A program made the translations under genes and the position numbers. This document shows, piece after piece, positions 24,983-28,242 of a stretch of DNA of 64,000 bases; positions within the stretch are counted from its first letter, which is position 1; each line of letters begins with the position of its first letter. The notes below the pieces were generated by a model, which was not told where the DNA came from, did no database searches, and saw nothing but the letters and a program-made list of their open reading frames with translations. The stretch lies in contig JASVEC010000001.1 in assembly GCA_030770535.1 (NCBI GenBank), positions 1,302,001-1,366,000 of the forward strand, written 5' to 3'. The stretch is from Batkoa obscura (Eukaryota).

Positions 24983-27900
24983 ATGGCATCTCCATTAGCT
25001 TTAGAAGCGAGTGAAAAGTAAATTTAATAATCTAATAAATCGAAAACGTATGTTAATATATAATATAGGATAGATCTTCATGAGGCTGAGGATCGTATCA
25101 CGTTAGTCTTACAACGTGAACGAATTTTAAAAAAAATAGAACTTGAGAGAGAATCCATTAAAAATGATTTAAAGAAGAAGATAATTAAGAATGAGATGAA
25201 GAGTATCATCAATAGAATTTTGAATGATTTTAATAAAAGGATCGAATTGGAAGTTGAAGAGGAGAAAGAGCGAGCTAAAAATCAATTTTTGGTGGAAGAG
25301 CTTGAGAGAAAAGAAAAACTTGGAAGGGAAATTTTGGCTAAAAGGAAAAAAGAAAGAGAGATGAAATTGATTAAATACATGAGCAAAAAGTTTTTTGTTA
25401 AAACAAAAGGTGGAGTTTGGGATCTATTTGAAGTGAAGGATGTAGCTTCGGTTATGGTAAGTTTAGTCTTATTTGTATGCAGGCTTATTTTGTTAAAAGT
25501 TTAGGTATCGGTTATTGAAGAAAGTAAACTTAAGGCAGGAAAGCTAAACAAAATTTATCATTTTATGAAGGGAATTAAAGAAAAGGAAACTGAAATTAAG
25601 GATAATATACTGGAAAATAAAGAAGAAAAAGAAGAAATTTTATCACTATTTAGTGAATTTGAAGATTGGATTAATGAAATTAAACAAAACGCTAGCAATG
25701 ATAATGATTTCAATGAAATTAAAATGATGGTAAATTCCTAAATTATAATTTATTATCAAAATTATTTAATTTTATTTTTAGATATCTTCTATAGATATCT
25801 TATTAAAAAAAGCACACTTTTATTCTATCAATCTATATTATTTATTCATTATTAATTTTATTGATGAAGCAATAGTAAGTTATCATAGGAAAAATAGAAA
25901 TGATATATTGATACCTTAATAGAGTGAAAGTATTCAGCTAAATAATAATAACAAGTTATGCTTATTGAGTTTAAAGATGCTTGGAAATCAACATGATACC
26001 TTATTCAATTATATGTATAGTAAACTGTTATTTTTATGTCCTATTGTTTTACCCAGTTTAATTGATAAAGATAAAAATGTAATAAGCTCATAAAGTAATA
26101 ATAATAATAATAATAATAATATATTTATTAGGAGCCAGTTTACGGAGAATGGAAAAGCAAACCAGCTTTAATTGAAAATGGTTTACCTTATTTTGAGTTG
26201 TACTGTAAACTGATTTTAACTTCCGGCGATGGTATTATACCTGGTAATAACAGTATACTCCTCTATAATAATATGCTAACAAAGCTTAATAGAATTTGAA
26301 GATAAAAATGATCAGTTTGAGACTCAAGAGATTTGGATTTGGTTATTAAGATTTATTAGCAATGGCTTAGTTGGTTCCGAATATTCGACATATTTAAAAT
26401 TGATGTTAAAAGTAAGGTTATATAATTAATAATCAAGTAGTATTGACTTTATAATAAGGAATGCGGAACTAAATTAATAAAAGACTATAAAATACAAGGA
26501 ATTAAATTATTAAGATATTTACAAGTTGAATTGAACAATAAGCCAAATCAATCAATTATTAAAGAAATTAAAGATGAGATTGAACTTTTACTAACAAAAA
26601 ATATGGATGATAAGAATACGAATATTAGTAAACCTAAAGATAGTAGTCAACAGAAGGTTAGTGAATACACTATTAAAGTAAGATTATTTACTGTATAATA
26701 TTAATACGATATTAACTTTTTTTACTATTTAAATAGCAAACGTATGTTCAAGAAATGCAATTAGAAGCAGCTAATTATCAAAAAGGAATTTATATACTTA
26801 AAAAATTAAATCAAAATATAGATAATAAAATAGAATTAAAGAAAAAGAGATTCGATATACGTAAAAAAATACGACCTAAATTAAGTCAAATTAATAACAC
26901 AAGAACAGTGGTTATGGAAGTAGTAAGTAGATTAACTATTGATATTATGAATCTTGATTGATTTTTATTTATTTATTTAGTTGAATAATATTCAAGCCAT
27001 TTTAAATGATGCTAAATTATGTCATCATTCATTATATATTTGGACATTAAATTTTTTGGTGAAACAAGCTATTGTAAGCGAAATTTTAATTCTATATAAT
27101 TTATATGTTAAAATTAGTTTTATTTAAATAGAAACAAACAGAAACAGAAATTATATCCAATTTAAGTATGGCGTTTCCATTAGCAAAATTGTTATTGTTA
27201 CTATGCAAAAACAACTTTGAATTAAGAAATTTATTAAATATTCGATTTTATAAACGTTGTCCTTATATTTTACCTAATACTTTACCAAAGTATTCGGAGG
27301 TAAAGATTGTTATTTAAAATACAAAAAATATATACCAATTAATAATTAAATTGATTAGGAAATAAAACCTGAAATATATAAAAAAAGGATGGGTTATATT
27401 CAAAAAGATAATAGATTTGAAGAGTTGGATGTTTATATTAAGAGAATTAATGCTATCTTTTATTTATATTGTGCTTTATTACAGTTTGATGAAAGAGGTA
27501 AAATGATAATTAGTATAATATAGTAATAATAATATTAAATATTATTTTAGATGGAATTAATAATACTTATGGGATTGATCATGCATGGTTATGGTTATCT
27601 AGATGTTTAATTGTAGCACCTAATGAAGTATCAGCAGAATTATTAAATACCTTTTTAATAGTAATGTTCTTTAATTATAATTATTATTGTAATCTTAAAT
27701 TAATAATAAATAATTAGGTATGTGGTGGTAAATTAATAGTGAGTTATAAAGCCCAAACAATTAAACTAATTCAATATATTGAAAGAGAATATTTTCCAAA
27801 ATTAGATTTGAAATTAAAAGCAACTCAATTTAGATTACAAATTACATTGGAAAAAATGAAGGAGAATAATTATTTTATTCAATTTCCAATTGGTAGAGAC

Positions 27901-28242
27901 TTTAATGGGGAATCTAATAGAAGCTTATTAAAAACTCAATATGATAGTGCAAATAATAATAATGTTGTAGACAATAACCCAAGTTATACTGAGAATAATA
28001 ATCCGTTTTCATTTGCTAAAAAGGATGATACTACTACTCAGTTTTCATTTACTAATACTAAGAATGAAAATAGTAATACTCAAACTTCATTTGGGTTTAG
28101 TAATACTATTAATAATAACAATAATCCATTTTCATTCCTTAATACTAGTAACAATCAAACAAGGGAATTCAATATAAGTAACTTTGCTGATGGGTTTGAT
28201 GATGACGATGATGATGCCTTTGATGAATTAGATGATGATTGA
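24983..28242 (+). CDS. GLE1: mRNA export factor Gle1, 14 exons, ~848 aa, with two tandem GLE1 domains
   Basis: Exons 24983-25017, 25069-25456, 25505-25729, 25782-25874, 25923-26078, 26132-26243, 26293-26411, 26459-26656, 26737-26922, 26981-27073, 27132-27299, 27359-27497, 27551-27660, 27718-28242 splice in frame via GT-AG. Motifs KQTETEI..AFPLA, KRCPYILP, KRMGY, AWLWLSR, YKAQTIKL, RLQ are characteristic of GLE1; N-terminal coiled coil. Confidence 0.85.

Follow-up and report, generated by a model that had tools for sequence, protein, structure and literature searches.

A tandem duplication of the Gle1 C-terminal domain, with one degenerate copy, within a single spliced gene of Batkoa obscura

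The mRNA-export factor Gle1 is essential and conserved, and to our knowledge all of its solved forms carry a single C-terminal domain (CTD). The fungal Gle1 set used for comparison consists of the structures from S. cerevisiae (3PEU, 3RRN and 6B4E), C. thermophilum (6B4G and 6B4H) and D. hansenii (9LT9) together with the Pfam family GLE1 (PF07817). In PMC5998080, Nup42 and Dbp5 are described as occupying opposite faces of Gle1, with Nup42 sitting on a hydrophobic surface that lies across from the helicase site; Nup42 binding raises the Tm of yeast Gle1 from 22 to 46 C, and human Gle1, which is without the IP6 lysines, still activates DDX19. Questions raised for Gle1 concern the role of Nup42 beyond stabilising it and how pore-bound Gle1 reaches Dbp5 (PMC5998080; PMC13242641).

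The gene described here lies at 24983..28242 on the forward (+) strand, as do all features given below, of the window, that is the whole 64,000-nucleotide stretch of Batkoa obscura DNA that was analysed (contig JASVEC010000001.1), an AT-rich fungal gene region with a GC content of 26%. The host is an insect-infecting fungus. From the ATG at 24983 to the TGA at 28242 the gene forms a single open frame of 14 exons, all flanked by GT..AG, with introns of 47-80 nt. The single frame had been proposed in an earlier note made from the sequence alone; the length of about 848 aa given there was superseded by 855 aa after correction of intron 8. As in fungal Gle1, a charged N-terminal region precedes a CTD, and the IP6/Dbp5 residues are kept in the second of the two CTDs (copy 2). 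Unlike fungal Gle1, the protein carries an extra, degenerate CTD (copy 1) that follows the putative coiled coil and precedes the working CTD, and its acidic tail contains FxF repeats. Exon 1 (24983..25017) contains the start codon and is followed by intron 1 in phase 2, while exon 2 (25069..25456) encodes the charged, helical-type region of aa 12-141, for which a Pfam match was absent and which was read as a coiled coil from its composition and from the Gle1 domain order in PMC5998080. At the other end, exon 14 (27718..28242) completes copy 2 and adds a tail of about 115 aa that carries four FxF motifs (aa 776-821) and terminates in an acidic stretch; at least three FxF motifs were present in only 3 of the 152 proteins screened, among them the public annotated protein P0001.

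Splice evidence was drawn from contigs of runs X1-X4 (four samples from one study), the RNA nature of which was deduced from intron-skipping joints and which contain about half of the stretch's words, matching the expectation for exons only. Runs X5-X8 (organisms B and C), with a word share of 0.10-0.13, do not enter into this evidence. In the X1-X4 contigs 11 of the 13 introns were skipped exactly at GT..AG. The joint of intron 1 (25017>25069) was present in two of the four runs and that of intron 3 at the given place in three, with an offset by 2 in the fourth, while the remaining directly observed joints were found in all four. Introns 5 and 9 sit in repeats and were fit by contig-length arithmetic, not by a direct joint (X2 record 8, 164 = 111+53; X2 record 9, 194 = 93+101). 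Intron 8 (26678..26736; 59 nt, phase 0) was skipped in all four runs (26677>26737), which places the end of exon 8 at 26677 and joins the two copies in one reading frame; the seven residues thereby added at the end of exon 8 are also present in P0001. The donor at 26657 (intron 26657-26736), a junction that the earlier note had itself queried, was ruled out, all four runs using 26678-26736. That the arrangement stems from two neighbouring genes, or from an error of assembly, appears extremely improbable. The RNA-like contigs each cover part of the gene and none runs its full length, the runs are presumed to be RNA and come from one study, and the public annotation begins only at aa 266, all of which would fit such an origin; against it stand the in-frame GT..AG joint of exons 8 and 9 in 4/4 runs, the fact that P0001 likewise joins both halves, and a divergence between the copies far too large for mis-assembly. 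The single gene supposed in the earlier note is thus supported.

Exon 11 has an identical stretch in P0001, a protein labelled Neoconidiobolus thromboides (Entomophthorales) and the only match when exon 11 or P0001 was used as the query of a word-based search. P0001 has 551 aa, begins at aa 266 of the tandem protein and is identical to it at 503 of 529 residues (95%), so that the public annotation omits the first 265 residues of the Gle1 protein. Since its substitutions at aa 361, 363, 399, 401, 468 and 479 correspond to letters present in the RNA-like contigs, two haplotypes are expressed, both carrying the tandem.

The extent of the duplication was defined with an HMM of our own, built from 156 relatives with the tandem protein itself left out. 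Copy 1 (aa 154-437, exons 3-8) matched columns 11-295 of 300 with 38.1 bits, and copy 2 (aa 454-738, exons 9-14) scored 266.2 bits; the HHalign probability for copy 1 was 97-98%. Copy 2 scored 200.8 bits against Pfam GLE1 (PF07817; cut-off 24), the best-matching part of P0001 being 203-437; two stretches were counted in P0001, and none of the six copy 1 exons taken singly matched Pfam GLE1. The two copies aligned to each other with a score of 148, which was reached by none of 1000 full shuffles (maximum 76) and none of 1000 block shuffles (maximum 113). At the DNA level the comparison of both copies gave just short AT-rich matches. Because the HMM spans aa 154-437 and aa 454-738, exon 3 (25505..25729; copy 1 helices 1-2, aa 142-216) pairs with exon 9 (26737..26922; copy 2 helices 1-2, Pfam GLE1 positions 6-46). 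The repeated unit is therefore exons 3-8 versus 9-14, not exons 4-8 versus 10-14 as in the earlier note, which had recognised the duplication and the degenerate state of its first copy. The further pairs are exons 4 (25782..25874) and 10 (26981..27073), both of 93 nt as had been pointed out, exons 5 (25923..26078) and 11 (27132..27299; QxExE and KRCP motifs, Pfam GLE1 E 1.9e-11), exons 6 (26132..26243; 5' junction by contig-length arithmetic) and 12 (27359..27497; Pfam GLE1 E 1.1e-07), exons 7 (26293..26411) and 13 (27551..27660), and exon 8 (26459..26677; ending in a short linker) with the 5' part of exon 14.

The introns of five pairs lie at HMM columns 68/68, 98/99, 155/154, 200.5/200 and 238/238, hence within one column of each other, and share the phases 0,0,0,1,0 in both copies, in keeping with what had been read from the sequence; at least four matches arose in none of 200,000 trials of random intron placement. 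Introns 2 and 8, both in phase 0, start the two units and match without a gap in the pairwise alignment. They are only likely to be a sixth matching pair, because that alignment had been cut at introns 2 and 8 and the HMM register there differs by six columns. Shuffles, HMM and intron pairs agree on the internal tandem duplication first suggested by the earlier note: the whole Gle1 CTD has been duplicated in tandem within one spliced gene, and the six-exon unit documents this intragenic duplication cleanly. Internal duplications in which one copy degenerates are common.

The losses in copy 1 are concentrated in the functions of the helicase side. We took IP6/Dbp5 positions from PMC5998080 and PMC11855661, mapped them through PDB chains and left the K264 position, whose copy 1 register is unsure, out of the count. 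A basic or matching residue was present at 10/10 of these positions in copy 2 and at 2/10 in copy 1, where K286 (yeast numbering) is replaced by F190, K333 by E245 (exon 4) and K377/K378 by F284/L285 (exon 5). The Q and E of helix 4 are deleted or changed, with QxExE gone from exon 5, which retains the CP; the RL motif of the last helix is missing, and a deletion in exon 6 takes out the Arg equivalent to human R569, a stability residue (PMC5998080). The net charge is -9 in copy 1 and +16 in copy 2, and over helix 2 it is -4 and +8, respectively. The loss of basic residues noticed earlier was thus borne out. Copy 1 agrees with the consensus at 26 of 81 conserved columns. Judged from these residues, copy 1 is likely unable to bind IP6 or to activate Dbp5. 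Its reading as helicase-inactive is based on the loss of the helix-4 Q/E pair and of the C-terminal RL helix and not on the IP6 lysines alone, the loss of which would be insufficient because human Gle1 without these lysines still activates DDX19.

A different picture was obtained for one surface of copy 1. Exon 7 retains W351 and exon 8 retains Y386, Q389, K392 and L393, at columns that are conserved in 99, 93, 89, 94 and 55% of 148 relatives. They correspond to yeast W451, Y488, Q491, K494 and L495 and, counted on PDB chains, to human W602, Y637, Q640 and K643, a patch which we take to be the Nup42-contact face of Gle1, with yeast E501 and E502 presumably as further contact positions. The W and Y of this patch may be kept for the fold instead of Nup42. 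All five putative Nup42 positions are kept in copy 1, or 6/7 with E501/E502 (Fisher p 0.015), on a list that was chosen after the alignment had been seen and from which E501/E502 were dropped as not conserved in relatives. W351, Y386, Q389 and K392 are identical in the second haplotype, P0001. We also compared each copy to three entomophthoralean orthologues (copy 1 also to copy 2) in 21-column windows of the alignment. At column 250 the identity of copy 1 was 0.51 versus 0.49 for copy 2 (ratio 1.04); other high windows were found at column 150 (the CP loop, ratio 0.91) and column 30 (ratio 0.88), while helix 2 had a ratio of only 0.20-0.26 and the last helix one of 0.29. The term pseudo-GLE1 domain, used in the earlier note, is accordingly too simple: the losses lie on the IP6/Dbp5 side, and this patch stands at orthologue-level identity.

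Structure models were examined for the fold of copy 1. The folded chain was P0001, and the model is without the first 110 residues of copy 1. When guided by a Gle1 alignment (60 rows), the copy 1 part, covering the equivalent of aa 266-434, reached a pLDDT of 81 and a pTM of 0.78, and its top-ranked PDB matches were all Gle1 (TM 0.57-0.72, Foldseek E 0.02-0.3), a result that is partly circular as Gle1 sequences served as its alignment. In the near-alignment-free model (11 rows) copy 1 had a pLDDT of 33-65 and the same helix order as copy 2. The copy 2 model matched 9LT9 and 3PEU with E 1e-13 to 1e-14 and TM 0.85, and the yeast chains with TM 0.85-0.86. The ESM Atlas model of copy 1 gave no Gle1 match, and against MIF4G chains the match of the model was weak (E 0.005-0.07). 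On these predicted models, copy 1 probably folds like Gle1.

Taken together, these observations are most consistent with copy 1 being a folded, helicase-dead, Nup42-docking module and copy 2 being the working domain, a reading to which we give a probability of about one half. Copy 2 would bind IP6 and activate Dbp5, the usual role of fungal Gle1. Nup42 binding stabilises the Gle1 domain strongly, and copy 1, which has neither IP6 nor the R569-type Arg, would rely on Nup42 to remain folded. It would anchor another set of Nup42 FG repeats and space copy 2 one more domain length from the coiled coil, and the extra FG repeats and the added reach would be placed at the cytoplasmic face, the site of mRNA release.

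Copy 1 could instead be a decaying spacer without a partner, its frame being maintained solely by its position ahead of the essential copy 2, with the kept residues reflecting folding needs or slow decay. We consider this the main rival, though less likely than docking. The allele data point to relaxed selection. Between the haplotypes copy 1 differs at 11/144 residues and copy 2 at 8/286 (p 0.026), a roughly threefold allelic divergence relative to copy 2, and among the 24 RNA variants listed for both copies, an incomplete set, five synonymous and six non-synonymous ones fell in copy 1 compared to 11 and two in copy 2. With transitions weighted, copy 1 was indistinguishable from neutral (omega 0.46-0.68, p 0.16-0.36). 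Decay would likewise account for its very long branch of 4-6 changes per column, for the deleted structural Arg and for the low confidence of the unguided model. However, at about 23% identity copy 1 still occupies 285 of 300 columns and has all five internal introns in place, the polar Q and K that it keeps probably do not belong to the core, and one of its helices is at orthologue-level identity.

Copy 1 could also be a regulator in cis. The face that once bound IP6, now acidic, would then dock on Dbp5 or on the basic IP6 pocket of copy 2, acting as an IP6 mimic or as an auto-inhibitory lid. The complementary charges of helix 2 in copy 1 (-4) and copy 2 (+8) would suit such a contact, and the IP6 face of Chaetomium Gle1 makes IP6-switched coat-complex contacts (bioRxiv 10.1101/2021.10.26.465790), but no part of copy 1 is less conserved than its acidic face (ratio 0.20-0.26), which fits decay better than a new interface; this reading seems improbable. 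A switch of helicase, by which copy 1 would activate another DEAD-box helicase, or Dbp5 without IP6 in the manner of human Gle1, seems very improbable. Human Gle1, with a Glu at the K333 position like copy 1, functions without the IP6 lysines (PMC5998080), and the Gle1 fold is related to MIF4G helicase platforms; copy 1, however, is without the helix-4 Q/E pair and the RL helix motif, and of the two lysines in helix 2 through which human Gle1 engages DDX19 (PMC5998080) it has lost one.

A search for representatives returned 857 proteins at E <= 0.001, of which the best 150 were used. The nearest relatives among these were P0002 of Massospora cicadina, P0003, P0161 of Entomophthora muscae and Gle1 of Basidiobolus, each with one GLE1 domain, while the best single-sequence matches of copy 1 were P0003, the E. 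muscae protein and its own copy 2. As the nearest orthologues and Basidiobolus are one-domain proteins and the best matches of copy 1 are entomophthoralean, the duplication is, on these sequence comparisons, restricted to a lineage, and the ancient origin proposed in the earlier note is not supported. In a tree on 135 chosen columns copy 1 fell within the Entomophthorales (86/96). The AU test was compatible with a clade of copies 1 and 2 (p-AU 0.18, 18 rows) and also with a shared origin of copy 1 and the first copy of P0162, a protein from a sequencing-run assembly (p-AU 0.21, 20 rows); because of the long branches, the placement of copy 1 in the trees is not firm. Conidiobolus coronatus and other Neoconidiobolus species were absent from the named matches, no single-domain Gle1 paralogue was named for the host species among the matches (30 representatives name-checked), and a metagenome scan yielded 276 pattern matches and no relatives. 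In an HHalign screen for hidden copies, 118 of 151 relatives had at least 150 residues upstream of the domain, the other 33 being too short there to contain a second copy. One of the 118 carried a hidden upstream copy, namely P0162 (score 52, probability 91%), against a next-best score of 21 and scores of 15 or less for five shuffles.

In the literature covered, with few subscription papers and including PMC8421043, PMC13242641 and bioRxiv 10.1101/2021.10.26.465790, we found no description of a tandem Gle1, and the earlier note had likewise known of none. The tandem Gle1 is real and expressed, and as a variant of a known protein it is apparently undescribed. Compared to its closest relatives P0002, P0161 and P0003, its copy 2 is 36-38% identical and the acidic, aromatic C-terminus is common to both, but these proteins have 537-545 aa, one CTD and no FxF repeats. 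Human GLE1 (6B4F and 6B4I) shares with copy 1 the loss of the IP6 pocket lysines, but keeps the helix-2 and helix-4 interface to DDX19 that copy 1 has lost.

The nearest parallel in architecture is P0162 (863 aa), in which a degenerate GLE1 domain (HHalign 91-95%) likewise lies upstream of an intact one. P0162 is 21-23% identical to the tandem protein over short stretches only, stands apart from the Entomophthorales in trees and has a first copy of which only about 120 columns are alignable; for its first half, ESM Atlas returned only helical-repeat leads under 0.9. The two tandems probably arose independently. As the Q and K of the patch are missing from both of its copies, P0162 gives no support to the Nup42 reading of copy 1. 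It may tentatively be proposed, at less than even odds, that Nup42 docking and IP6/Dbp5 activation are partly split between tandem domains and that unrelated eukaryotes acquired a degenerate-plus-intact GLE1 tandem on at least two occasions, which, if true, would provide a natural separation-of-function tool for the last mRNA-export step. The one-sided conservation of copy 1 and the possible second origin make the Gle1 tandem testable, and copy 1, with only its putative Nup42-side patch kept and its position as a spacer, makes both of the Gle1 questions raised at the outset testable with simple chimeras. Outside the Gle1 family, eIF4G, CBP80 and UPF2 are tandem MIF4G/HEAT proteins in which only some copies bind a helicase; they belong to a different family, but as in the protein described here a helicase-platform-like domain is repeated.

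Directly upstream of Gle1 lay clustered genes for small secreted cysteine-rich peptides, near-identical to one another, at 11361-11684 on the reverse strand and at 19173-19412, about 20624, 22472-22708 and 23683-23928 on the forward strand, of which the copy near 20624 looks broken. One peptide of the cluster gave a weak, defensin-like Pfam match that fell below the cut-off (E 5.5e-4). Further ORFs included a tandem pair of nearly identical, Gly/Ser-rich ORFs of secreted type (6871-7659 and 9314-10105, reverse strand), and an intronless ORF of about 1940 aa (38912-44764, forward strand), which we take to be 1,3-beta-glucan-synthase-like. 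Fragments resembling a DNA transposase lay at 61413-62891 on the forward strand. An intronless Kelch-repeat gene with a hydrophobic segment at its C-terminus (28255-29658, reverse strand) was convergent with Gle1, and as the two stop codons were only 12 nt apart, the 3' ends of these genes must overlap.

Two Gle1 haplotypes were present in the RNA contigs, differing by ~5% in protein (24983-28242 versus the public model P0001), which suggests a diploid or hybrid strain. In contrast to the Gle1 of the window, P0001 starts at aa 266 and differs at its C-terminal end.

The Gle1 tail (aa 760-855, 27960-28242) carried four FxF motifs within an N/T/S-rich stretch resembling FG-nucleoporin repeats, followed by an acidic, aromatic terminus. 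Only this terminus was shared with the Gle1 proteins of Entomophthora, Massospora and the entomophthoralean orthologue P0003. The unrelated, 863-aa Gle1 protein P0162, from a sequencing-run assembly, likewise had a degenerate GLE1 copy (aa about 420-544; HHalign 91-95%) preceding an intact one (596-850).
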